Part shown: positions 37,741 through 59,462 of the stretch, piece by piece
Layout of the letters: each line of letters opens with the position of its first letter
Numbering within the stretch: the stretch's first letter is position 1
Origin: a virus
Lineage: Duplodnaviria > Caudoviricetes
DNA: 59,462 nucleotides
IMG/VR virus record: IMGVR_UViG_3300042197_001662
Location: 1 to 59,462 of that record
Direction: 5' to 3' (one strand)
Translations under genes and position numbers: made by a program
Notes under the pieces: model-generated
Told to the model about the DNA's origin: nothing
Databases searched by the model: none
The model's input: the letters and a program-made list of their open reading frames with translations, nothing else

Positions 37741-38991
37741 ATGCCCGAAGCGGCTGGTGCACTAACGCTGAGATACGCCCAAGGCCAAGTCTTCAACAGC
37801 CGCAAACGCTTCAGAGTGCTGGTTGCAGGCCGCCGCTTCGGCAAAAGCTACCTCTCGTGCATCGAATTATTGCGTGGGGCGATCGAAAGGCCGGGCGAAA
37901 CTTTCTTCTACGCGGCCCCTACATACCGGATGGCGAAGGACATCGCCTGGAAGGTAATGAAAAAACTGGTCCCCAAAGCCTGGATCAAGAGCAAAAACGA
38001 GACCGACCTCAAGATTGAACTCGTCAACGGCTCCACCATCGAACTAAAAGGCACCGAAAACGCCATGGCCCTACGCGGCCGAAGCCTCGCTGGCGTGGTG
38101 CTCGACGAAGCCGCCTTCATGTCCAGCGACGTCTGGTTCGAAGTCATCCGCCCCGCCCTCGCCGACAAACAAGGCTGGGCACTCTTCATCTCCACGCCCG
38201 ATGGCACGGCCAGCTGGTTCTACGAACTCTGGCAATATGCCGAAACCGGCGATTCCGACTGGAGCCGCTGGCAATTCACGACGATCGACGGCGATAACGT
38301 CCCACCGGAAGAAATCGAAGCCGCCCGCAGCCAACTCGATGCTCGCACCTTCCGTCAAGAATTTGAGGCCAGCTTCGAGAATCTCAGCGGTCTCGTTGCC
38401 GTCTCCTTTGGAGACGAAAACATTTCCACAAAAGCAGTCGACATCCCCGCCTTGCCACTGATGGTGGGCGTGGACTTTAACAACGATCCGATGTCTGGAA
38501 TCGTCGCCGTCCGCCACGACAACAACCTATTTGTCATCGACGAAATCATTTTGACCGGCGGCGCCACCACCTGGGATTTTTGCGACGAACTAATCAGCCG
38601 CTACGGCGTAGAGCGCCGCATCATTACCTGCCCAGACCCAACTGGAGCAGCCCGTAAAACCAGCGGTGTCGGCTATACCGACCACAATATTCTCCGCAAA
38701 TCAGGCTTCACTGTCTCCAGTCCCCGCTCCCCCTGGAAAATCCGCGACAAGATCACCTGCGTCAACACTGCATTACTAGATGCCGCCGGCAACCGCCGTA
38801 CTTTTATCCATCCCAAATGTAAAGAGCTAATCAAGTCCCTCCGTACTTTGACTTATTCCCCTGGCACTGGCCTCCCCAACAAAAACCTTGGCGTCGACCA
38901 CGCCTTTGACGCCTTTGGGTATATGTGCCTACAAGTCTTCAACCTCGCCAAACCCGAAACCCTTGGCTCGACTAGCTATCGAATTTACTAA
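37741..38991 (+). CDS. terL: Terminase large subunit
   Basis: VAGRRFGKS Walker A, VVLDEAA Walker B, ISTP, VGVDF nuclease, DHAFDAFGY. Confidence 0.95.
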   Translation: MPEAAGALTLRYAQGQVFNSRKRFRVLVAGRRFGKSYLSCIELLRGAIERPGETFFYAAPTYRMAKDIAWKVMKKLVPKAWIKSKNETDLKIELVNGSTIELKGTENAMALRGRSLAGVVLDEAAFMSSDVWFEVIRPALADKQGWALFISTPDGTASWFYELWQYAETGDSDWSRWQFTTIDGDNVPPEEIEAARSQLDARTFRQEFEASFENLSGLVAVSFGDENISTKAVDIPALPLMVGVDFNNDPMSGIVAVRHDNNLFVIDEIILTGGATTWDFCDELISRYGVERRIITCPDPTGAARKTSGVGYTDHNILRKSGFTVSSPRSPWKIRDKITCVNTALLDAAGNRRTFIHPKCKELIKSLRTLTYSPGTGLPNKNLGVDHAFDAFGYMCLQVFNLAKPETLGSTSYRIY

Positions 38992-43372: not shown

Positions 43373-44401
43373 ATGGCTACTAAGCAGGAATACTTAACGC
43401 TTGCCCAGGTCACCGCCCTGGTGAAGCTGGCGCGTGACATCAAGAACGTCAACAGCCTGCTGTCCGGCGACGGCCCGCCAACCACCGAAGGCCGCAAGGG
43501 CGACTGGTACATCAATACCCGCACTGCCGAGCTTTACGGCCCCCGTACCACCAGCGGCTGGAACGACAGCCCACTTCCGCTATCTGGCGACGCCCGCCAC
43601 TCTGAACTACTCATCAACGGCAACCTGAGCAGCGGTGGCGGCTCCGGCACAGCCGGCACTATCACCATCGGCACAGTCACAACCGGCGAACCCGGATCCT
43701 CAGCAACGGTCACAAACGTCGGCACCGCTGAAGCCGCAATCCTTAACTTCAGCATCCCGCGTGGGGCAACAGGTAACACAGGTGCTGCGGGCTCCACTGG
43801 TGCTACAGGCGCAACCGGCGCCACAGGACCACAAGGTCCCCAAGGCCCCCAAGGCGAACAAGGTCCAGCTGGAGCAACCGGCCCTCAGGGCATCCAAGGC
43901 GCTAAAGGCGACAAGGGCGACCAAGGTGAAACAGGTCTTACTGGGGCTACTGGCCCCCAAGGTCCTCAAGGCGATACCGGTCCTCAAGGCCCCCAAGGCG
44001 ACCAAGGACCCCAAGGTTTAACCGGCGCTACGGGCGCTACCGGAGCCACCGGCGCAACAGGTCCCCAGGGCGCCACAGGTGCAACAGGACCCCAAGGCCC
44101 TCAGGGCGAAACCGGCCCCCAAGGCATCCAAGGCGCCACAGGCCCAGCTGGCAGCGACGCCACCGTCACCGCTGGAACAGGCATCAGCGTCAGCTCAGGT
44201 GTCGTCTCCTTAAACACGACCTTCCTAACCACCAACGCATACCTACAAGTCCCAACTGGAACAACACTCCAGCGCCCCGGTACACCCGCCACCGGAATGA
44301 TCCGGTTTAACACCACCGCCGGATGCTTTGAGGGCTACACAGGCAGCGCCTGGGTCAACCTATCGCCCACCGGCATCGACGACGTTGGCGCAACTGTGTG
44401 A
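43373..44401 (+). CDS. Collagen-like (Gly-X-Y) fibre protein
   Basis: Long GPQ/GAT repeat run; GDWYINT...LYGP; P.GTT.QRP...GMIRFNT. Confidence 0.85.
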
Positions 44402-49038: not shown

Positions 49039-51741
49039 GTGGCCAATTACAGCGTAGACATTGAAGTAGGGCTAAAAGGCACAGAAAAACTGCGCGATCT
49101 CCGCAGCAACATTGATGCACTAGCCAACAAAATCAACACAATAAATAGTTATGCAGATGTATTTAAAGCGCCGCTGCAAAATGTTAAAAACTATAGTAAA
49201 GCATTACAAGAAGCAGCTGAGGCACTAAATAAAGCCGAACTAGGCACAAAAGATGAGACAGATGCAGTAAAACTATATGTACAAGCACTGGGTCAAGCGG
49301 AAGGCGTCCAAAAACGTCGTATCAATTTAATTGAGCAAGAAATTGAAGCGCAGAGACGTCTTGAAGTTCAGCAAACTAAGTCATCCCGTACCATTGAATT
49401 AGGTCCCGGTGGCCCCGGCTTTAGTGGAGGTTTTAGCGCAGCCGATCGTGCCCGTGCCAACCAAGCCGCACGTGAAAAAGAAAACGCGGGCCGCCGTCAA
49501 ACACTCGAACTTTTAAACAGAGAAGTTTCATTTGAAATTCGACTGCAAAATATACGTGAGCGTAACGCTGCACTAGCTGCAAAACAAGCACGCCAAGGTG
49601 GTGCTTTATCTAATGCCGTAATCGGCGGTGCCTTCCCGCTGCTCTTTGGCCAAGGCCCTGGTGCGGCTCTTGGCGGTGCCTTAGGCGGTGGAATCGGCGG
49701 TCGCATGGGTGGACAAGCCGGATTTGGCGGTTCACTCGTCGGCACTTTTGTCGGTCAAGCGACTATCGACTTTGCTATTAACAGCGTCGTTCAACTCGGC
49801 AACGCACTTAAAAAACCAACCGAAAATATCCAAGAGCTAACAAAATTTTTGAGCATCGCTGGTACTCAAGTAAATACAACTATTGATGTCTTACGCGGCT
49901 TAGGTCTTGAATCAGTTGCAGCTTCAGTTGCACTCCAGGAACTTGAAAAACGCCTCGGCGATCAAGGTTTTAAAGACGTAAAAACTATATCTAAAGATCT
50001 ACAAGACTTTGATAATACTCTTCGTGATCTACGCCTAGCCGCCGCATTACTCGGAACAAAATTTAAACCGTTGCTTGATTTTATTACTGCAGTAGTTAGT
50101 GCGGCTGCTAAAGCAGGTCTTCCACGCGGTGGAACACTCGCCACAGTTTCCAATGTGGCTGTGGCAACCGGAGCAGGTACTGGACGTCCTGCACAAGGTG
50201 CCGGTGCACGAACTACAACTGCTGACGTAACTATCGAGAGCGTCATAGCGCGTCGCGTCGCTCTTGCCGCCAATGAAGTTTCGCTGGAACGCGAGCGTCT
50301 GTCTCTTGGACGTGTAGCCCTCGCATCCCGCCAAGGTGAACTCCAGATTCAACGTCTATCGGTGGATCTCGAAGAAAAAAGACTGAATCTACTAAAAGAA
50401 CAAGACCCGGCTAAGCGCAAACTGCTGGGACTAGAAGTTCAAATAACCGAGCAACAAAAACAGCAAGCTGAAGCTGCGCGACAGAACGCGATAATTGAGG
50501 CGCAACGTCAAGTACAGCGTGATCTTGTTGGACTTGAGATCCAAAAAGAAGGTGTAAGCGCACAGATAAATACTTTAATTGCTGAACGAATCACTCTTCA
50601 ACGCGGAGAATCAGCGGGTATTTCAGCACGAATGGATATGCTGAACGACGAATTACAGTCTCGCGCTCGCGTTCTGCAGTACCAAAGGGATATTTCTTTG
50701 ATAGGCGTAAAAGAAGCTTCCGTACGAACTGAAATAAATGAACTATATAAAGGTCAAATGTCTCAGTTACTTATTGAAGTAAACAACAGAAAAGAAGCAC
50801 TTAAACAGCAACAAGCTCAATATAATTTGAGCCAATTACAGATTGATCAACAACGCCAATTAGCAAATATCCAATCTAAAACACAATACGGCTTGCAAAT
50901 TGCAACGCTTAAAGCTGAAAGTGACCCGCGTTTCCGTGGTTTATTCGGCGGCAGCCGCCGCACTCAAGAAATAATGCAACTGGAACAGCAAGCTGCGCTG
51001 TCAACAATGACGACTCAGCTAACTGCATTGGAAGCACAGGCTGCTGTCCCAGGGATAGCTCCAGACACAAAACGCGGTCTGCAACAACAAACGGATGCGT
51101 TAAAGGATCAGATAGCTATTTACAGAGAATATCAGCCGGCAGTTATTCAAGCCACGGTTGCCCAACAGAAATTTAACGAGACGATGGCTCTAACCAACCC
51201 CATCGTCGATGGTGTATTTGAAAGTTTCATGTCAGTGGCATCCGCAACTAAATCGGCCGAACAGGCATTTGCAGACTTCTTGATGTCTGTTTCACAGATG
51301 CTATTTGACACTGTAAAGCAGATGATTGCCCAGTACATCGCACTGGGTATTGCCCGTTCGTTCGCCGGTATTCCGCCCGCCGGTGGCGGCAACGTGGCCG
51401 GGCTATTCGGAGCTGGTGCTCCAAGTGCTGTTGCTGGCGGCGGCATTTTTTCCGGCGCGGGGCCTTTTCAGTTCCGCGCAAACGGGGGTCCTGTATCCGC
51501 AGGACGCCCTTACCTCGTCGGCGAACGCGGTCCCGAACTGTTCATGCCGCGTTCCAGCGGCAGCATCTACCCCAACGATGCTATGGGCATGGGTGGTTCA
51601 AACATCGTGGTGAACGTCGACGCCGGTGGCTCTAGTGTGGGAGGCGATCCCGGCCAAGCCAACATGCTCGGCAAAGCCATCGGCATTGCAGTCCAACAAG
51701 AACTCATTAAGCAAAAACGACCCGGAGGCTTGCTCGCCTAA
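49039..51741 (+). CDS. Tape measure protein
   Basis: 900 aa helical, Gly-rich hydrophobic segment, C-terminal RA.GGPV..G.PYLVGERGPELF.P. Confidence 0.9.
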   Translation: MANYSVDIEVGLKGTEKLRDLRSNIDALANKINTINSYADVFKAPLQNVKNYSKALQEAAEALNKAELGTKDETDAVKLYVQALGQAEGVQKRRINLIEQEIEAQRRLEVQQTKSSRTIELGPGGPGFSGGFSAADRARANQAAREKENAGRRQTLELLNREVSFEIRLQNIRERNAALAAKQARQGGALSNAVIGGAFPLLFGQGPGAALGGALGGGIGGRMGGQAGFGGSLVGTFVGQATIDFAINSVVQLGNALKKPTENIQELTKFLSIAGTQVNTTIDVLRGLGLESVAASVALQELEKRLGDQGFKDVKTISKDLQDFDNTLRDLRLAAALLGTKFKPLLDFITAVVSAAAKAGLPRGGTLATVSNVAVATGAGTGRPAQGAGARTTTADVTIESVIARRVALAANEVSLERERLSLGRVALASRQGELQIQRLSVDLEEKRLNLLKEQDPAKRKLLGLEVQITEQQKQQAEAARQNAIIEAQRQVQRDLVGLEIQKEGVSAQINTLIAERITLQRGESAGISARMDMLNDELQSRARVLQYQRDISLIGVKEASVRTEINELYKGQMSQLLIEVNNRKEALKQQQAQYNLSQLQIDQQRQLANIQSKTQYGLQIATLKAESDPRFRGLFGGSRRTQEIMQLEQQAALSTMTTQLTALEAQAAVPGIAPDTKRGLQQQTDALKDQIAIYREYQPAVIQATVAQQKFNETMALTNPIVDGVFESFMSVASATKSAEQAFADFLMSVSQMLFDTVKQMIAQYIALGIARSFAGIPPAGGGNVAGLFGAGAPSAVAGGGIFSGAGPFQFRANGGPVSAGRPYLVGERGPELFMPRSSGSIYPNDAMGMGGSNIVVNVDAGGSSVGGDPGQANMLGKAIGIAVQQELIKQKRPGGLLA

Positions 51742-52082
51742 TGGCTACCTTCCCTGCGATAACTCCAACTTATGGCGCCCAAAAAGCCAGCCGCCCCGTG
51801 GTCCGCACGGTCCAGTTCGGCGACGGTTACCAACAACGCCTGACCTACGGCCTCAACCAAAACCCCAAGAGCTGGAGCCTGACCTGGGAAGTCTCCGAAA
51901 CCGACGCCGACACAATCGAAACCTTCCTCAACAACCGCGCTGCTGACAACGCCAGCTTCGACTGGACGCCACTTGATGAAGGCACTTCCTACAAGTGGAT
52001 TTGCCAGGAATGGAGCAAAACTGTTCCATATAAAAATCGCGCCACGATTACAGCAACATTCCAGCAAGTATTTGAACCCTGA
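51741..52082 (+). CDS. Distal tail protein (lambda M-like)
   Basis: VQFGDGYQQR...GLN, IE.FL, SF.WTP, ATF.QVFEP. Confidence 0.9.
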   Translation: MATFPAITPTYGAQKASRPVVRTVQFGDGYQQRLTYGLNQNPKSWSLTWEVSETDADTIETFLNNRAADNASFDWTPLDEGTSYKWICQEWSKTVPYKNRATITATFQQVFEP

Positions 52083-52975
52083 TGGCGTACTCAGCCTGGG
52101 CTTCCACTACCGCCTACGTCGTCGGTGACATTGTTCGCGCCACGACGCTGCAATCGTCTGGTCTTGTTTTCCAATGCACCACGGCTGGCACCAGCGGCAG
52201 CACGCAGCCCGTCTGGGCAACGGATATTGGCAGCACCGTCACTGATGGCACGGTCACGTGGACCGCGATTGCCAGCACCTACGAAGAACTTGCGGCGATT
52301 GCTCCCAGCGCGATCATCGAACTATTTGAGCTGACGCTGGACGCCACACTGCATGGCAGCAGCGATACCTACCGCTGGCACAACGGTTGCAACGCCAACG
52401 TCACCGGCAACGTCACCTGGAACGGCAACGCCTACACCCGCCTTCCGGTCAAGGCAGATGGCTTTGAGTACACCAACACGGGTACGCTGCCGCGCCCCAC
52501 GCTGACCATCGCCAACTTGGATGGCACGATGACGACGCTGTTGTTGCTCGTTAATGCGACCACTGCGGGCAACGATCTCGGCGGCGCCACGGTCAAGCGT
52601 ATCCGCACCCTGAAGAAATACCTAGACGGTGAAGCCAACGCCGACCCGCACGCCAAGTTTCCCGACGAAATCTGGTATGTGGACCGCAAGGCAAGTGAAA
52701 CCCGCGACGCCGTGAGCTTTGAGCTTGCCAGCAAATTCGACCTGGCTGGTGTGATGATCCCGAAGCGCCAGATCATCGCCAACATCTGCCAGTGGAAATA
52801 TCGCAGTAGTGAGTGCGGCTACACCGGCAGCAACTACTGGAACATCAACGATCAGTCGGTTGGCACTTTGGCGGAAGATAAGTGCGGCAAGCGCCTCAGC
52901 TCGTGCAAATTACGGTTCGGCGCCACTGCTGAATTGCCCTTCGGCTCGTTCCCCGGCGCAGGTTTGACCGAATGA
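52082..52975 (+). CDS. Tail tip protein (lambda L-like) with N-terminal extension
   Basis: IELFEL, LPRPTL, RIRTL.KYLD, FELAS..DL, four-Cys C.W.YR..ECGY...DKC.KRLSSC..RF. Confidence 0.9.
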   Translation: MAYSAWASTTAYVVGDIVRATTLQSSGLVFQCTTAGTSGSTQPVWATDIGSTVTDGTVTWTAIASTYEELAAIAPSAIIELFELTLDATLHGSSDTYRWHNGCNANVTGNVTWNGNAYTRLPVKADGFEYTNTGTLPRPTLTIANLDGTMTTLLLLVNATTAGNDLGGATVKRIRTLKKYLDGEANADPHAKFPDEIWYVDRKASETRDAVSFELASKFDLAGVMIPKRQIIANICQWKYRSSECGYTGSNYWNINDQSVGTLAEDKCGKRLSSCKLRFGATAELPFGSFPGAGLTE

Positions 52976-53685
52976 GGCTCACCGACAGCATCAAAGAACA
53001 GGCACTGGAGCACGCCAAGGCGGAATTTCCGGCTGAATCCTGCGGTCTTGTTGCCGTCGTCAAAGGGCGCAAACGGTATTTCCCATGCCGCAACCTTGCG
53101 GAAACGCCGGACGAGCACTTTGTTCTTGACCCGCTCCAGTACGCCGAGGTTGAAGATCAGGGCGAAATCGTGGCGGTGGTGCATAGCCACCCCAAAACCA
53201 ACCACGCGCCGTCCCAAGCTGATCGCGTCGCCTGCGAAAAATCTGGGTTGCCTTGGCACATCGTCAATCCCCAGACCGAGCAATGGGGCTACTGCGAGCC
53301 GGAAGGCTTTGAGCTGCCCTACGTGGGGCGTGAGTTCGTCTTTGGCATCGTCGATTGCTATTCGCTCTGCCGCGACTGGTACAAGCGGGAGTTTGGACTG
53401 GATCTCAAGGACTACGACCGCCGCGATCAGTTCTGGCTCAAGGGCGAGAGCCTCTACATGGACAACTTCGCCAACGAAGGCTTCCACCGCATCCCACTGA
53501 AAGAGCTGCAATACGGCGACGCCATTTTGATGCAACTGGAATCGTCACTACCCAACCATGCAGCGATTTACCTAGGCGATCAGTTGATCCTGCACCACCT
53601 GCAAAGACGCCTCAGTAGCCGGGATCTGTACGGCGGTTATTATTTGAAGAGCACCGCCTGCGCCCTGCGGCATGAAAGTCGTTAA
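52972..53685 (+). CDS. Tail assembly protein K-like: JAB/MPN plus NlpC/P60
   Basis: ESCG, HSHP....PSQAD (JAMM); DCYSL, NHAAIY, ILHH. Confidence 0.92.
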   Translation: MRLTDSIKEQALEHAKAEFPAESCGLVAVVKGRKRYFPCRNLAETPDEHFVLDPLQYAEVEDQGEIVAVVHSHPKTNHAPSQADRVACEKSGLPWHIVNPQTEQWGYCEPEGFELPYVGREFVFGIVDCYSLCRDWYKREFGLDLKDYDRRDQFWLKGESLYMDNFANEGFHRIPLKELQYGDAILMQLESSLPNHAAIYLGDQLILHHLQRRLSSRDLYGGYYLKSTACALRHESR

Positions 53686-54346
53686 GGTCTACGGCGCACT
53701 CCGCAAACGACTGGGGCAGTGTCGCTTCCAATTTGATGTTGACACCCCAGCGCAAGCATTTAAAGCGTTGTGTGTTAATTTTCCCGGTCTAGACAAGTGG
53801 TTAATTGATAGTGAACAAGAAGGGGTTGGTTATCGGCTAACAATCGGCAAGGAAAAAATAAACGAAACCAATGCTGTTTTAATCGGCTGCCCGTGGAGTG
53901 AGCAAGAAGTTTTTAGCATCACACCCGTTATTGCTGGTGCCGGTGGTAATGCTGCCGCAAGTATCGGCATTGGCGTCGGCTTGGTATTTGCCTCGTTCTT
54001 GCTGCCCGGTGCTGGTCTTTTTGGCGCTACAAGCTTGTTTGGAGCTACTGCTACAGCCACTGGTGCGGCTGGCGCTTTAACCACCTTGGGCGTTGCGTTG
54101 AGTGGATTAGGTGCGTCGCTGGTTATTGGAGGTATTGCACAAGCAATTTCACCGTCTCCAATAATGTCTACCGCTGCAAATAACTCGTTTGAACGTGGAC
54201 GTGAAGCTGCCAAGTTTGAGTCGTTTACCTTCAGCGGAATTGTCAATACCGCCAAGCAAGGTTTACCCGTGCCAATCGCCTACGGGCGCTGCTTCGTAGG
54301 TTCCGCTGTGCTCTCCAGCGGTCTTGACGTGGATCAAATCCTATGA
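53672..54346 (+). CDS. Tail assembly protein I-like (ubiquitin-like fold)
   Basis: VKVYGAL...G, PVIAGAGG, hydrophobic Gly-rich middle, QGLPVPIAYG..FVGS..LS. Confidence 0.9.
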   Translation: MKVVKVYGALRKRLGQCRFQFDVDTPAQAFKALCVNFPGLDKWLIDSEQEGVGYRLTIGKEKINETNAVLIGCPWSEQEVFSITPVIAGAGGNAAASIGIGVGLVFASFLLPGAGLFGATSLFGATATATGAAGALTTLGVALSGLGASLVIGGIAQAISPSPIMSTAANNSFERGREAAKFESFTFSGIVNTAKQGLPVPIAYGRCFVGSAVLSSGLDVDQIL

Positions 54347-57300
54347 CTCGCATTGTTGGTGCTGGTGGCGGCGGTGGTGGAGGCGGTTGCTTTCTTGGGC
54401 ACACGCTTGTTGCCACACCAACGGGCGAACGCCGCATTGATGAGCTACGCCCCGACGATCTTGTCTGGAGCTTCGACCACAACGGCGGAATCCACGAAGC
54501 CAAGGTGCTCAAGGTTCACAAGCACGAAAACGAGCGCGTCATCCGTTACACGCTCTGGGGCGGTCAGATCCTTGATGCCACGCCAAACCACTGGGTACTC
54601 AACCAGTTCAACGCCTTCGTCGAAATCGACACCCTTGGCGCGGACGACTGCCTAGTCGATCACAACGGGCACCTGCGCCCCATCGTCAGCAAGGCTGAAT
54701 TTTGCAATGGCACCGTCTACAACCTGACGGTCGAAGGGCACCACACTTTTATTGCTGGCGGAATCCGCGTCCATAACGCCGGTCTAGGTCTGGGTATCGC
54801 CGGTTCCGGTGGAGGCGGTGGAGGCGGCGGTGGCAGCAAAGGTGGCGGCGGTGGCGGTGGCGCCAGTCGTACCCCTACCGAAGCCGACGACTCGCTTCAG
54901 TCTGTCCAATTTGGCAGCGTGCTGGATCTGCTGTCGGAAGGCGAAATCCAAGGCATCGAAAACGGCAACAAGGGTATTTATCTCGCTGGCACACCGATTG
55001 AAGATGCTGCCGGAAACGTCAATTTCTCCGGCTTCACGATCGAAAGCCGCACTGGTACACAAGCCCAGAGCTATATCAGCCAACAGATTGGCACCGAAAG
55101 CGAAAAAGGCGTCAACGTCGAAGTCTTCAAAGACACCCCAGTCGTTCGCACCATCACCGATTCAGACGTTGATCGTGTTCGCGTAACGCTGCAAATCCCG
55201 GCGCTACAAATCTTCCTGGATAACGGCGACATTATCGGACACAGCGTACAAATTCAGATCCAAGTTCAGTACAACTCCGGCGGCTACACAACAGTTGTCA
55301 CCGACACGATTAGCGGCAAGACCAGCAATCCTTACCAGCGCGATTACATGTTGTTGCTGTCTGGAGCATTTCCTGTTGACATCAAAGTTGTCCGCGTCAG
55401 TGACGACGAAACAACCGCCCGCCGCCAAAACCTGACCTACTGGTTTAGCTACACCGAAATCATTGATGAAAAACTGCGTTACCCCAACAGCGCACTGGCA
55501 TACCTGCGTTTTGATTCGCGCCAGTTTGATTCAATCCCAACCCGCAAATATCTGATTCGCGGCGTCAAAGTACAACTGCCATCTAACGCCACTGTTGATA
55601 CCACCACTTACCCAGGTCGCGTGACCTACGCAGGCATCTGGGACGGCACATTTGGCGCGGCGACATGGTGCAGTGACCCTGCCTGGTGTTTATACGACCT
55701 GCTCACTAACACCCGTTATGGCGCGTCAATTCCCGCCAGCAGCCTCGATAAATACGACTTCTACGCCATCAGCCAATACTGCAACACGCTGGTAAGCAAC
55801 GGACGCGGCGGGCAAGAACCGCGCTTCTCGTGCAACCTGCTCATCAACAGCCGCGACGAGGTTTACAACGTCATCCAAGAGATGACAAGCCTGTTCCGTG
55901 GCATCGCGTATTACGGCGCTGGCTCGCTGGTACTGCAGCAGGACAAACCCACCGATTCGCAGTATCTGATTGGTCCCAGCAACGTTATTGACGGCAACTT
56001 TGTTTATAGCGGCACCTCACAAAAAGCCCGCCATACCACCGCCACTGTTGCTTGGCAGTCCTACGACACCCTTGGTGAAGTCGAATACGAATACGTTGAA
56101 GACGCCGACGCTGTAGCCAAATACGGCATCATCAACAAAGATATCAAGGCGCTGGGTTGTTACAGCCAAGGGCAGGCACATCGCGCTGGTAAGTGGGCGC
56201 TACTGAGCGAACAAAACCTGACCGAAACTGTCACCTTCTCGGTGTCAATCGACAGTGGCATCATCTTGCGCCCCGGCATGGTGATCGACGTTGCCGATCC
56301 GTTGAAAGCTGGCTCACGCCGTAGCGGTCGCGTCAAGTCCGCCACGACAACCGCCATCACGATTGACAGCAGCACTGATCTGACCGTCAACCTATCCAAC
56401 AGCCCAACAATTTCGGTGTTGATGCCAACGGGCTTGGTGGAAACCAAATCCATCAGCAGCATCAGCAGCGGCGTTATAACCGTCAGCAGCGCCTTCAGCG
56501 AAGCTCCTAACGCCAACAGCGTCTGGCTCATCCAAACCAGCGACATCCAATCCCAGCAATATCGCGTTTTGAATGTTGCTGAAGCGGAAGATGGAATTTA
56601 CGGCGTCACCGCACTGGAATACAACAGCAGCATTTATGCCGCCATTGAATCAGACATCAATCTGACCGAACGAGACATCAGCAACCTGTCTAACAAACCT
56701 GATGCCCCAAGCAGTCTGGGTGGAACGGAATATCTATACCAAGACGGGCAAAGTGTATTTTCCGGCTTCGACCTGAGCTGGACTAGCCCGAAACAGCGCG
56801 TCAACGAATTTCGCGTTAAGTGGCGCATTGATAACGACAACTGGAGCCAAGCCAACACCACGTCACCGTCCCTGCAGATCAAAAACACCCGCAAGGGCAC
56901 GCTGTATGTCCAAGTCACCGCCGCCAACTACCTCAATAAGGTCAGCGAAATTGCCGTTGCCCAATTTGACCTGATTGGCAAAACCGCTGTTCCCGGCAAC
57001 GTCCAAAACCTCACGTTTGAAGCAATCAATAACAACTCCGGTCGCCTGCGCTGGACCGAAACCGTTGACCTTGACGTGAAGGTTGGTGGCAAGATCCATA
57101 TTCGCCACAGCAGCCTCACTGACGGCACCGCCACTTGGAGCAACAGCGTTGACCTGATCCCAGCAAAATCCGGCTCTTCTACTGAGGCGATTATTCCGCT
57201 GGTGGAAGGCGAAGTGCTGGTGAAATTTGAGGATGACGGTGGACGACAAAGCGCCAGCGAAACCAGCGTCATCATTGATCTGCCCGACACCATCGCCCCG

Positions 57301-58110
57301 CTCACGATCCAAACCCGGCGAGAAGATCAAGATGCCCCACCGTTCCAAGGATCGAAGGTGGATGTGTTTTACAGCGACGAGTTCGATGCGCTCACGCTGG
57401 ATGGCGACACCGCTTTCGACACCGTTGTTGATGTTGACGCCATGGTCAACTTTGACGTGATTGGCGAAGTCCTTGGCTCAGGCAATTACACCTTCCTGAA
57501 CACGTTGGATCTGGGCAACACCTTTGCCGTTGACCTGCGCCGTTATTTCGTCACCCGTGGCTACTACCCGTCCGATCTAATCGACTCCCGCACCAACACG
57601 GTGGACGACTGGAGCGATTGGGACGGCGCCGTGACCGACAAGGTAAATGCCAAGCTGATGTTGCGCTCCACCACCGACAACCCAAGCAGCAGCCCGACTT
57701 GGGGAAGCTGGCAGGAGTTTGTCAACGGCACCTTCCGTGGTCGCGGCTTCCAGTTCCGCGCTGACCTCACCAGCAGCGCCATCGACCAAAACATCTTGGT
57801 GGACGAGCTGGGCTATGACGCCACCTTCCAGCGTCGCGCTGAAAACAGCGATGGAGCGGTCAGCAGCGGTGCAGGCGCCAAGGCGATCACCTTCGCCAAT
57901 CCGTTCTGGACTGGTACGGCAAGCCTCGGCGGGGTCAACGCCTACCTGCCAAGCATCGGCATCACGGCCCAAAACATGGGCACCGGCGATTACTTTGAAG
58001 TCACCAGCGTCAGTGGCACCGGCTTTACGGTTACCTTCAAAAATTCGGGTGGCACTGCCGTCAGCCGTAACTTCAACTGGAGTGCGGTTGGTTATGGCAG
58101 AGGCGGTTAA
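54343..58110 (+). CDS. Central tail fibre/tail tip protein J-like with N-terminal Hint domain and FN3-like repeats
   Basis: DLLSEGEI.G, LRYPNSAL, WDGTF, DPAW.LYDLLT..RYG, EPRF, GC.S.GQA.R.G.W, PG.VI.VADP. Confidence 0.93.
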   Translation: MTRIVGAGGGGGGGGCFLGHTLVATPTGERRIDELRPDDLVWSFDHNGGIHEAKVLKVHKHENERVIRYTLWGGQILDATPNHWVLNQFNAFVEIDTLGADDCLVDHNGHLRPIVSKAEFCNGTVYNLTVEGHHTFIAGGIRVHNAGLGLGIAGSGGGGGGGGGSKGGGGGGGASRTPTEADDSLQSVQFGSVLDLLSEGEIQGIENGNKGIYLAGTPIEDAAGNVNFSGFTIESRTGTQAQSYISQQIGTESEKGVNVEVFKDTPVVRTITDSDVDRVRVTLQIPALQIFLDNGDIIGHSVQIQIQVQYNSGGYTTVVTDTISGKTSNPYQRDYMLLLSGAFPVDIKVVRVSDDETTARRQNLTYWFSYTEIIDEKLRYPNSALAYLRFDSRQFDSIPTRKYLIRGVKVQLPSNATVDTTTYPGRVTYAGIWDGTFGAATWCSDPAWCLYDLLTNTRYGASIPASSLDKYDFYAISQYCNTLVSNGRGGQEPRFSCNLLINSRDEVYNVIQEMTSLFRGIAYYGAGSLVLQQDKPTDSQYLIGPSNVIDGNFVYSGTSQKARHTTATVAWQSYDTLGEVEYEYVEDADAVAKYGIINKDIKALGCYSQGQAHRAGKWALLSEQNLTETVTFSVSIDSGIILRPGMVIDVADPLKAGSRRSGRVKSATTTAITIDSSTDLTVNLSNSPTISVLMPTGLVETKSISSISSGVITVSSAFSEAPNANSVWLIQTSDIQSQQYRVLNVAEAEDGIYGVTALEYNSSIYAAIESDINLTERDISNLSNKPDAPSSLGGTEYLYQDGQSVFSGFDLSWTSPKQRVNEFRVKWRIDNDNWSQANTTSPSLQIKNTRKGTLYVQVTAANYLNKVSEIAVAQFDLIGKTAVPGNVQNLTFEAINNNSGRLRWTETVDLDVKVGGKIHIRHSSLTDGTATWSNSVDLIPAKSGSSTEAIIPLVEGEVLVKFEDDGGRQSASETSVIIDLPDTIAPLTIQTRREDQDAPPFQGSKVDVFYSDEFDALTLDGDTAFDTVVDVDAMVNFDVIGEVLGSGNYTFLNTLDLGNTFAVDLRRYFVTRGYYPSDLIDSRTNTVDDWSDWDGAVTDKVNAKLMLRSTTDNPSSSPTWGSWQEFVNGTFRGRGFQFRADLTSSAIDQNILVDELGYDATFQRRAENSDGAVSSGAGAKAITFANPFWTGTASLGGVNAYLPSIGITAQNMGTGDYFEVTSVSGTGFTVTFKNSGGTAVSRNFNWSAVGYGRGG
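54388..54777 (+). other. Hint (bacterial intein-like) domain, 130 aa, no endonuclease
   Basis: CFLGHTLV.TP.G...I.EL; ATPNH (TxxH); VYNLTVEGHHTFIAGGIRVHN, followed by Ala. Confidence 0.92.
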
Positions 58111-58145: not shown

Positions 58146-59462
58146 ATGGCTCAGCACGATTACGTTATTGCCAACGGCACTGGTGCAGCCGTCCGCAGTG
58201 ACCTCAATAACGCGCTTGCTGCGATTGTGTCACAGAACAGTGGCGCAACGGAACCCGCAACGACCTACGCGTTCCAGTTCTGGGCAGATACCACCACCAG
58301 CACCTTAAAGCTCAGAAATAGCGCGAACAATGCCTGGATCGAGCTGCTGCAGCTTGACGGCACGCTGACCATGGAAGACGGCACCGAGGCGCTGCCCGGT
58401 CTTGCCTTCCGCTCCGACCTCGATACCGGAGTCTGGCGCCCAGGAACCAACTCACTGGCGATCAGCACCAACGCCGTGGAGCGCGTTGAATTTGGCGCCA
58501 GCGAAGTTGTTTTCAATGACGGCGGCGCTAACTACGACTTCCGCGTCGAAGGTGATACAAACGCAAACCTGCTATTTGTTGACGCCTCGGCAGATGCGGT
58601 AGGCATAGGGTCTTCGACGCCTCAAGATTCTCTACAAGCGCCAAATGCACGCTTTACAGTTTTTTCGGCAGGCGGATCAAGTGGCTCAACATTTGATAAT
58701 GGTGTTCGGATTCTTTCGGGTGACGGAGGCCCTGGAAATAGACCTTCTATACAAATCAGTGGTGGTGGCACCGCTGGACTTAGCAACAAAAGTTTCCGCA
58801 CCTATTACGACAACGGCGGAACAGAATCTTTGTATTTTACCTACCAGGGCGGTGCTTATTTCGGAGCAGCGGTAGGGATTGGCGTTACGAGTCCTACGCA
58901 AGCACTAGAAGTTGCCGGTTCAATTCGCCTTAACAATGATCTTCTTGTTGCCGATGCAACTGCAACTCGTGGTCGCATTTATGGTGACTCCACTGGATTG
59001 GTTGTTCGCGCTGACACGGGACTTCAACTCCGATTCCATGCTGATGCTCAAGAGAAGGCGCGTATTGATACATCAGGACGCCTGTTAGTTGGCACGTCTA
59101 CGAGTGCTAGCGCGGGTGATGCTCAATACGCAAAGTTACAAGTTCAAGGAAACACAAATAACAACGCCGGTAGCGCCATTTTTGCTCTTTTAAGAGGAGA
59201 AGCGGCAACAAGTATTACTTCGGGCGAGTCAATCGGCTTGCTTCAATTTGCGGACAGTTCTGGCAATCCATTTGGGTATATTCAGTGTGTAGCCGATGGA
59301 AATGCGGGATCGGGTGATTACCCAGGACGCATAGAGTTCTCGGTGACGAGGGATGGCCAGGCATCGCCAACTGAGGCGCTCAGGATTACAAATGGTGGAG
59401 CAATTTCTTGTGGGCCGCAAGTTAGCGGTGCAGATCTTGTTGGAACAGAAGCCTGCGGTTTT
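58146..59462 (+). CDS. Side tail fibre, open to window end (absent from ORF track); completed in frame by 18063..18518 on circularisation
   Basis: MAQHDYVIANGTGAAVRSDLNNAL.AI; DTSGRLLVGTS; last 42 codons identical to those in 17508..18518. Confidence 0.9.
   Translation, partial: MAQHDYVIANGTGAAVRSDLNNALAAIVSQNSGATEPATTYAFQFWADTTTSTLKLRNSANNAWIELLQLDGTLTMEDGTEALPGLAFRSDLDTGVWRPGTNSLAISTNAVERVEFGASEVVFNDGGANYDFRVEGDTNANLLFVDASADAVGIGSSTPQDSLQAPNARFTVFSAGGSSGSTFDNGVRILSGDGGPGNRPSIQISGGGTAGLSNKSFRTYYDNGGTESLYFTYQGGAYFGAAVGIGVTSPTQALEVAGSIRLNNDLLVADATATRGRIYGDSTGLVVRADTGLQLRFHADAQEKARIDTSGRLLVGTSTSASAGDAQYAKLQVQGNTNNNAGSAIFALLRGEAATSITSGESIGLLQFADSSGNPFGYIQCVADGNAGSGDYPGRIEFSVTRDGQASPTEALRITNGGAISCGPQVSGADLVGTEACGF
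59336..59462 (+). repeat. 127-nt exact direct repeat, copy 2
   Basis: Identical to 17936..18062 up to the last base of the window. Confidence 0.97.

Follow-up and report, generated by a model that had tools for sequence, protein, structure and literature searches.

How does a conserved virion protein come to begin with a domain of the intein type, and what becomes of that domain once the protein has been made? The question is raised by the tail-tip gene J of a tailed phage represented by an uncultured-virus record (IMG/VR IMGVR_UViG_3300042197_001662), the whole of which, 59,462 bases with an estimated completeness of 100%, is the stretch of DNA analyzed here and is called the window. In the predicted precursor of J, a leader of 15 residues and a Hint (Hedgehog/intein) domain of 130 residues stand ahead of an otherwise ordinary J protein. 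The domain is classed from its sequence as a type-A bacterial intein-like (BIL) domain of the PT-HINT kind rather than a canonical intein; it is well preserved in relatives of the phage and yet appears to be dispensable, and it is probably a self-removing cassette. The features of the J N-terminus, all on the plus strand, are as follows.

54343..54387 (+): leader (N-extein), Met1 to Gly15, reading MTRIVGA and then eight Gly; Gly15 is the would-be thioester residue, and the predicted local distance difference test score (pLDDT) is below 50 for residues 1-12
54388..54777 (+): predicted Hint (BIL-type) autoprocessing domain, Cys16 to Asn145, 130 residues, identified by profiles, an AlphaFold2 model and Foldseek
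54388..54390 (+): codon of Cys1 of the domain (Cys16 of J), the putative nucleophile of an N-S acyl shift; the first residue is Cys in 221 of 221 domains
54580..54591 (+): block-B motif TPNH (Thr80 to His83), present in 61 of 61 close relatives; Thr80 and His83 are invariant in the 40-sequence alignment A1
54769..54777 (+): VHN (Val143 to Asn145) at the end of the domain, with [IV]RVHN in 61 of 61 close relatives; Asn145 would cyclize and cut the Asn145-Ala146 bond
54778..54861 (+): start of the C-extein, comprising Ala146, the spacer GLGLG and IAGS-G9-SK-G7; pLDDT is below 50, and Ala stands at +1 in 61 of 61 close relatives
54862..54903 (+): start of the conserved J body (ASRTPTEADDSLQS), which aligns with the first residues of lambda TipJ and of the J chains in the PDB

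The translation agrees with the layout that an earlier note on this DNA had read from the start of J, namely a leader, a Hint domain of 130 residues, an Ala and a Gly tract. The Hint domain has VYNLTV at residues 125-130, the order behind it is A146-GLGLG-IAGS-G9-SK-G7-ASRTPTEADDSLQS, and the end coordinate of that note, 54870, is codon 176 of J. The lambda TipJ profile (NF049904) matches over its positions 2-717 to J residues 169-885 (E 1e-120), and residues 2-37 of the lambda J chains 8iyk and 9e7m align with J residues 169-204. Since both the profile and the chains begin to align at residue 169, the Gly-rich tract behind the Hint domain is the normal start of J, as had been proposed, and 168 residues precede that point in the J of the window. 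The beginning of the C-extein consists of a second copy of the leader motif and the normal Gly-Lys-Gly start of J. The start of J of phage SSU5 aligns with the segment behind the Hint domain of a divergent Hint-bearing J protein (P0164), and alleles of J that lack the Hint domain have the same layout as the C-extein of the window, which implies that the C-extein by itself makes up a complete native N-terminus of J. Between J residues 2 and 214, the only in-frame ATG, GTG or TTG codons are those of Val55, within the Hint domain, and Val193, past the conserved start. No in-frame start lies between the Hint domain and the conserved J start, and thus every J chain is translated through the Hint domain, a separate start of J downstream of it is ruled out, and a new J N-terminus produced by autoprocessing, as the earlier note supposed, is the natural reading. 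A fusion of gpI to J by a -1 frameshift, which would give a large N-extein, was also considered and rejected: a stop in the J frame lies five codons upstream of the ATG, and no slippery heptamer was spotted there, although no dedicated test was run.

Two other features of the domain may be recorded beside its layout. A second Cys (Cys103, 54649-54651) lies in the motif DDCLVD and is invariant among 45 close sequences, and a His-rich strand, VHKHEN at 54511-54528, is VHEHE in most relatives and has His61 kept in at least 90% of alignment A1. Redox or metal control of processing is described for some inteins and for BIL2, a BIL domain of Tetrahymena, and Cys103 and the His-rich strand could constitute a redox or metal switch on Hint processing.

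The domain scores above the cut-offs of both NCBIfam intein models, with 27.3 bits against 24.5 for intein_Nterm (TIGR01445) and 24.1 against 15.6 for intein_Cterm (TIGR01443). The profile search that had been suggested as a check on the assignment succeeded with these models, the evidence for a Hint domain as a whole being well above what chance would give; with the Pfam models the window's own scores fell about one bit short of the gathering cut-offs, a point taken up below. Across the family, the Pfam models Intein_splicing and PT-HINT each match 37 of 40 members at E <= 0.001, the best PT-HINT match being 6e-14; PT-HINT scores reach 46 bits in J-borne representatives and 93-301 bits in relatives with tandem arrays. 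An AlphaFold2 model made with alignment A1 as input has pLDDT above 90 over residues 16-145, where it is all beta, and below 50 in both flanks. Foldseek gave 66 PDB matches to this model at E <= 0.001, and among the matches listed there are only BIL, intein or Hedgehog chains, so that the predicted fold belongs to the Hint superfamily. The BIL and intein structures match with E from 1e-11 to 1e-7; the top match is the BIL2 domain of the Tetrahymena BUBL locus (6y75/6tmm, E 1e-11), mini-inteins are also among the top matches, and the template-modelling (TM) score to the BIL structure 2lwy is 0.87 with a root-mean-square deviation of 1.6. Structure comparison cannot separate BIL from intein, as TM-scores of 0.75-0.89 are spread across both. 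By sequence, the best PDB chain is 2lwy, deposited as "bacterial intein-like domain" (E 1.8e-6), and a profile of the family scores 83.9 bits against 2lwy (E 1.7e-22), 63.9 against the gp41-1 intein (2e-16), 49.4 against BIL2 and at most 49 against other inteins, which places inteins further from the domain than a bona fide BIL.

The residues required for catalysis at both ends of a class-1 intein are present in the window, being Cys16 (Cys1), Thr80 to His83 (block-B TxxH) and His144-Asn145 (the terminal His-Asn). In the 61 close relatives, Cys1, TPNH, His-Asn, Ala at +1 and a length of 130 residues are each found in 61 of 61. In a wider family of 221 full-length domains, which occur in 149 of the 150 best cluster representatives, Cys1 is found in 221 and His-Asn in 214, so the decay of catalytic residues that would have spoken against a working domain is not seen. 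The Cys, Ser or Thr that a class-1 intein requires at +1 is Ala in the window, and the wider family has Lys in 123, Gly in 80, Ala in nine, Arg in five, and Gln, Leu, Thr and Val once each. Most homologues would have had a nucleophile at +1 if the domain were a decayed ordinary intein; its absence across the family, with a single Thr among 221, implies a stable trait and not decay. The residue at -1 is Gly in 74 of the 76 J-type Hint domains of the wider family. At the block-F position, the alignments have Asn (VYN) in the window and in 2lwy and Asp in the Npu DnaE intein; this Asn127 is kept in at least 90% of alignment A1. The block-F Asp serves the transesterification step. A C-terminal His-Asn that is kept together with a +1 nucleophile that is absent defines a type-A BIL (PMC7765530, PMC7664689), and both features are found in the window. 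The earlier call of a BIL or pretoxin-Hint arrangement, with neither an endonuclease nor a +1 nucleophile, is thereby borne out. According to excerpts of two papers (PMC7664689, PMC7765530), BIL domains without a +1 nucleophile give mainly N- and C-cleavage products, and one mutation can make BIL domains into efficient splicers.

Of 8000 proteins scored in a word-indexed search with J residues 1-210, 1014 reached E <= 0.001; the best 120 of the 1014 are all of the length of J, and those displayed share the layout of the window. An exhaustive search of 1.84 billion cluster representatives with residues 1-170 gave 5069 matches at E <= 0.001, 458 at <= 1e-10 and 73 at <= 1e-30. The 149 best with a recognizable domain comprise 78 J-like proteins with the Hint domain ahead, 29 non-J proteins with tandem domains, 22 proteins of other architectures and 20 short fragments, and Pfam confirmed FNIII-A_GpJ and Phage-tail_3 in 15 of 15 proteins picked from those with an N-terminal Hint domain. 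In a FastTree phylogeny of 218 domains, 73 of 77 J-borne Hint domains fall in one clade (support 0.85), which also includes five domains from other proteins and six from fragments. In 68 divergent J proteins, the median identity is 0.43 for the Hint domain and 0.39 for the J body, the two are correlated (Pearson r 0.57, with none of 2000 permutations as high), and the divergence of the Hint domain exceeds that of the J body by 0.25 at most. The tracking of J-body identity by Hint identity indicates that the association is old and largely vertical.

A tblastn search of 50,697 deposited phage records with the Hint region gave four weak matches, none on a J gene (two hypothetical proteins, a P-loop NTPase and a terminase), and the same search with the divergent Hint-bearing J protein P0164 matched 1796 records, none covering 80% of the query, of which the best 40 all begin after the Hint domain, so that those J proteins carry none. 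Cultivated or binned genomes of prokaryotes contain 30 loci, of which just three are close (49-71% identity), all of them in metagenome bins; the others, mostly from Alphaproteobacteria, are Hint domains about 23-35% identical or match the C-terminal motif over a short stretch. Within the window itself, no further copy was found at E <= 0.01. The literature searched, which leaves out most subscription journals, yielded no description of J or another tail-tip protein with a Hint or BIL domain, in keeping with the remark of the earlier note that its author knew of no such domain characterized in a lambda-type tail tip.

Some of these matches deserve a description of their own. Two close relatives of the J start of the window (L002, L003) are on short contigs in metagenome bins labelled Cyanobacteria and Aquiluna; they are probably mis-binned phage contigs and so no pointer to the host. 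A set of 29 proteins that do not look like phage proteins (P0128, P0132, P0133, P0147, P0151 and 24 more), of about 520-1130 residues, have three to five tandem Hint domains with Lys-Gly-Gly(-Gly) between them, a signal-like N-terminus ahead and a Gly/Ser-rich tract behind, and a Tim44-like domain is present in all five that were scanned. Six proteins of about 1080-1290 residues (P0149, P0208, P0217, P0232, P0256, P0260) have an intact Hint domain some 200-300 residues from the end, followed by Lys or Ala, and their extreme C-terminus is a second, degenerate Hint domain without His-Asn. In another six non-J proteins (P0212, P0226, P0228, P0205, P0218, P0227), Hint domains of the J clade are located about 200 residues in or near the C-terminus and are followed by tails rich in Gly-Gly-Lys; the five that were scanned (P0212, P0226, P0205, P0218, P0227) have no other Pfam domain.

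The presence or absence of the domain among close relatives was followed by a scan of viral contigs with the J body, which gave 81 loci (the best 80 of 597 relatives and the window). Of these, 61 have the Hint domain, 11 lack it and begin with a complete J start (L053, L054, L056, L068, L069, L070, L072, L080, L082, L086, L087; 11 of 72 that could be classified) and nine were left unclassed, six of which visibly contain Hint sequence and three of which are too short to tell. Over 51 distinct loci (922 pairs with synonymous divergence, dS, between 0.1 and 2), the median ratio of nonsynonymous to synonymous divergence (dN/dS) is 0.107 in the Hint domain, compared to 0.088 in the J body (its first 500 codons), and 71 of the 130 positions of the domain are invariant over 45 distinct sequences. 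These values indicate purifying selection on the domain rather than decay. In a quick maximum-likelihood tree of the J body, made from 80 rows after the removal of L042, which lacks the anchor motif, the Hint-bearing clade encloses the 11 Hint-less rows; parsimony counts six gains or losses, of which at least two are forced by well-supported branches, and in certain Hint-less and Hint-bearing pairs the distance is below 0.03 substitutions per site. When three such pairs are aligned as DNA, the flanks are nearly the same and a single insertion or deletion of about 435 nucleotides is seen. On this sequence evidence, the domain is well preserved yet dispensable to the phage. The proposal that it is a retained maturation device does not hold in the sense of something needed, with 11 of 72 close relatives lacking it and nested among Hint-bearing sisters.

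The DNA on either side of the domain suggests how it could be lost. Two direct copies of a repeat of Gly codons, (GGN)n, flank it:

54364..54385 (+): upstream copy, the reference copy of repeat family D1
54808..54829 (+): downstream copy, 86% identical, 444 nucleotides (148 codons) from the upstream copy

Deletion of the sequence between the repeats joins the leader to the Gly9-Ser-Lys-Gly7 tract, which is the natural Hint-less layout, and the leader variant of the Hint-less alleles is also found in two Hint-bearing sisters. Simple deletion is thus the easiest origin of the Hint-less forms, to be preferred provisionally over the alternative of gain by recombination. What is missing from the Hint-less alleles, besides the Hint domain, is the spacer and one of the two motif copies. 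In four proteins with two copies of the domain (P0004, P0123, P0131, P0210), the identity between the copies is 53-79% and their similarity to the Hint domain of the window is lower, which implies that tandem duplication recurs. Among 73 J representatives, the domain is directly within the Gly run in 23, is followed by a spacer of about eight residues and a second copy of the leader end in 47, as in the window, and has neither arrangement in three. The duplicated poly-Gly motifs noted earlier are therefore real and more specific than was said, because the end of the leader is repeated about eight residues past the domain and the two copies covary: in 51 proteins, 4.92 of 7 residues are identical between the leader-end copy and the copy behind the domain, compared to 4.01 +/- 0.09 when shuffled, with none of 2000 shuffles as high. 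The covariation speaks for either selection or continuing recombination between the copies. A class-1 intein interrupts a conserved site and has an empty allele equal to the joined exteins; here the site is a disordered Gly tract and the empty allele is not of that kind. The host protein also differs from those in which BIL domains are expected, which are variable, non-conserved and mostly secreted bacterial proteins, in that J is a conserved structural protein of phages; the local insertion site is nonetheless a variable Gly linker.

The account that probably explains these data is that the J-borne Hint domain is a self-removing N-terminal cassette. J would be translated as leader (15 residues), Hint domain (130 residues) and J, and the Hint domain would then fold. 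Cys16 would attack the Gly15-Cys16 bond in an N-S acyl shift, leaving Gly15 as a thioester, and Asn145 would cyclize and cut the Asn145-Ala146 bond, releasing J with a flexible N-terminus rich in Ala and Gly that already holds all that a Hint-less J starts with. As the +1 residue is Ala, no transesterification is possible, and the thioester would be resolved either by water, so that leader and Hint domain are discarded, or by the freed alpha-amine of Ala146, which would amount to nucleophile-free splicing. Small, unhindered Gly or Ala residues at -1 and +1 in disordered linkers would favor both hydrolysis and attack by the alpha-amine. Because the C-extein is already native-like, cleavage alone should suffice for a working J. 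The cassette, consisting of the Hint domain, the short spacer and the repeat of the leader motif, would vary in copy number between zero, one and two through recombination between the Gly-codon repeats, and would be dispensable yet, where present, obliged to keep working.

Several points weigh against this account. Every chemical step, the product that prevails and the choice between a passenger and a benefit are argued by analogy with other systems. The best Pfam match of the domain, Intein_splicing, scores 34.7 bits, just under its gathering cut-off of 35.8, and PT-HINT (PF07591) scores 26.5 bits, 1.2 short of its cut-off of 27.7. Strict retention of Cys1 is not obviously needed for C-terminal cleavage alone, even in the 47 of 73 representatives that have a complete C-extein, so that what is selected for could be splicing or thioester transfer. 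An endonuclease-free and easily deleted cassette that is merely tolerated should vanish over time, whereas this one has been retained, diverging together with J down to some 40% identity at a dN/dS of about 0.1, which argues for a benefit. Nucleophile-free splicing is reportedly known for BIL domains of Clostridium thermocellum, and, going by their titles only, Dassa 2004 and Aranko 2013 are said to have A-type BILs ligating their flanks. Contrary to such titles, an excerpt of PMC7765530 states that A-type BILs cannot ligate their flanks.

If the cassette is kept for a benefit to the phage, the same chemistry would be domesticated rather than tolerated and the Hint domain would be a pro-domain, for example an assembly timer, an intramolecular chaperone that holds the J N-terminus off gpI, gpL and gpK until J has folded and trimerized, or a means of producing a Met-free Gly/Ala N-terminus. 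This is possible though on balance doubtful. Long co-divergence with J, the near-monophyly of J-type Hint domains, the low dN/dS across the domain with its many invariant positions, the invariance of Cys1 even with a redundant leader, and retention in 61 close relatives compared to 11 without the domain, although loss would be mechanically easy, all speak for it. In an excerpt of PMC10721106, the N-terminal region of lambda J contacts gpI and complements gpL in the tip, and a bulky N-terminal cap might plausibly gate tip assembly. On the other hand, sister phages with nearly identical flanks carry Hint-less alleles, the survey of deposited phages found no J-borne copy (the best 40 of the 1796 P0164 matches having been inspected), which implies that well-studied J proteins work without a Hint domain, and a passenger that poisons J whenever excision fails would show purifying selection too. 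A more ambitious version, in which the cassette is domesticated assembly chemistry that presents a Gly thioester and a fresh Gly/Ala amine at the tip of the nascent J trimer for use by the phage, is rather unlikely; such chemistry would serve for timing tip assembly, for nucleophile-free rejoining of the leader or for ligase-free tagging of Lys residues of a tip partner or the host envelope in the manner of BUBL BIL2. The covarying motif copies would then be a functional requirement and not a scar of recombination.

The idea that the Gly15 thioester attaches the leader to an outside amine, be it that of a lipid or of a Lys in some tail or host protein, has a real precedent in the BIL2 domain of BUBL, which is the top Foldseek match and, in excerpts of PMC8616854, forms an isopeptide to Lys without E1, E2 or E3 enzymes. 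The conservation of Gly at -1 in J-type Hint domains, the invariance of Cys1 where the leader is redundant and a conserved Lys within the Gly tract behind the domain would suit such a device. Ubiquitin likewise ends in Gly. However, that Lys is also present in Hint-less alleles and hence is not specific to the Hint domain; the moiety that could be transferred is a leader of 7-33 residues, variable in sequence and without a folded domain; J, being on the C-terminal side, gains nothing; the family profile is much closer to the C. thermocellum BIL than to BIL2; and the cassette is dispensable. The leader transfer that the earlier note had envisaged, with a tail or host protein as recipient, therefore finds no support in the sequence of the window and is quite improbable. 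It is less probable still that the Hint domain remains uncleaved on J in the virion as an extra domain of the tip. The flexible Gly linkers on both sides would let such a domain dangle, and Hint-fold domains can act as plain binding modules, but near-invariant Cys1, TxxH and His-Asn in a family at about 25-40% identity are a signature of retained catalysis and not of a scaffold. Least credible of all is an ordinary mini-intein that has lost its endonuclease and restores J by canonical splicing, with Ala at +1 as a recent decay or a tolerated variant. The NCBIfam scores, the rank of Intein_splicing among the Pfam matches, the sporadic distribution and the 23 of 73 representatives in which the domain is precisely inside the Gly run, where exact splicing would recreate a native-like start, would all accommodate it; but the census of the +1 position (a nucleophile in one of 221 domains and in none of the 61 close relatives) largely refutes it, the insertion lies in a disordered Gly linker and not at a functional site that is conserved, the empty alleles are not equal to joined exteins for the window and for 47 of the 73 representatives, and block F has Asn in place of Asp, like the BIL structure.

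The gene that carries the cassette belongs to a lambda-like tail-tip module at the right end of the window, in which profile matches give the order tape measure, M-like, L-like, K-like, I-like and J:

49039-51741: tape measure protein
51741-52082: M-like protein
52082-52975: L-like protein
52972-53685: K-like protein (JAB and NlpC/P60 domains)
53672..54346 (+): gpI-like tail assembly protein, open reading frame of 224 residues (phrog_32 tail assembly protein, E 1.7e-42)
54343..58110 (+): precursor of the tail-tip or host-specificity protein J, a single open reading frame of 1255 residues
from 58146 (+): fibre gene, after J

The ATG of J overlaps the stop of the gpI-like reading frame (ATGA). 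J matches FNIII-A_GpJ (E 8.4e-39) and Phage-tail_3 (E 7.5e-15) in Pfam and the central tail fiber J family phrog_31 (E 2.8e-236), and these matches, the TipJ profile and the position after M, L, K and I identify it as a lambda-type tail-tip protein. Compared to lambda J (NF049904, 8IYK), which has no Hint domain, as is true of the best 40 of the 1796 J matches in deposited phages, J of the window is ordinary from residue 169, and its distal part past about residue 890 is unrelated.

Three observations concern the rest of the genome. The fibre-like gene (58146-59462, plus strand) continues past the end of the record despite the completeness rating, and the genome is probably circularly permuted or slightly truncated there. 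The terminase large subunit reading frame (37741-38991, plus strand) has only 416 residues and covers positions 264-592 of a profile of 807, so that its N-terminal ATPase portion may lie in a separate gene or be interrupted. Directly behind the portal gene, within the head module, there is a gene (43373-44401, plus strand) for a repeat protein of collagen-like or tail-fibre-like type.

Among known systems, the nearest is the type-A BIL of C. thermocellum (2LWY), which shares with the J-borne domain the Hint fold, Cys1, TxxH, His-Asn, the lack of Cys, Ser or Thr at +1, the lack of an endonuclease, a length of about 130-140 residues, the block-F Asn (VYN) and a site in a variable low-complexity part of the host protein. 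According to excerpts of PMC7765530 and PMC3482391, the hosts of the described BILs are hypervariable secreted proteins of bacteria and polymorphic toxins, where the domain lies in the C-terminal part or ahead of it. The J-borne domain, in contrast, is at the extreme N-terminus of a conserved virion protein, behind a leader of 15 residues, which makes the C-extein the functional protein, and it has two poly-Gly junctions and a duplicated host motif flanking the cassette. Class-1 mini-inteins (gp41-1, Npu DnaE, Ssp DnaB, Mtu RecA) have the same fold, catalytic residues at both ends and a sporadic presence; they differ from the J-type family in the +1 nucleophile, which that family essentially lacks, in the insertion site, which in J is a disordered linker, in the empty allele, which in J is not simply the joined exteins, and in block F, where Asn replaces Asp. 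BUBL BIL2 of Tetrahymena thermophila (6Y75/6TMM) shares a BIL domain and an N-extein ending in Gly, but its N-extein is a folded ubiquitin-like domain and the point of the reaction, whereas that of the window is a short leader; in an excerpt of PMC8616854, its thioester goes to an amine (Lys) and not to a +1 side chain. Peptidase_S74 domains are C-terminal intramolecular chaperones of tail spikes and fibres that are co-translated, self-cleaving and essential for folding. They offer a functional analogy for a pro-domain, with an unrelated fold and chemistry and a C-terminal position, where the Hint domain is N-terminal and dispensable. What is new is thus a known kind of domain, BIL or PT-HINT, in a widespread setting among uncultured phages, at the N-terminus of J, with poly-Gly junctions and a copy number of zero, one or two.

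For the annotation of phage genomes, about 150-300 additional residues at the N-terminus of a J-like reading frame probably do not mean that its start was mis-called. Junctions of the type Gly|Cys...His-Asn|Gly/Ala suit traceless, nucleophile-free protein ligation, and a compact domain of 130 residues that works between poly-Gly linkers may interest protein engineers. The purpose of BIL domains is still mostly guesswork after two decades, and the J-borne Hint domains provide a large natural series in which one BIL clade occupies a defined position on a virion protein that is well understood, with zero-, one- and two-copy alleles in near-identical phages. Such natural alleles make the question of whether the domain is a passenger or a tool directly testable by isogenic comparison.

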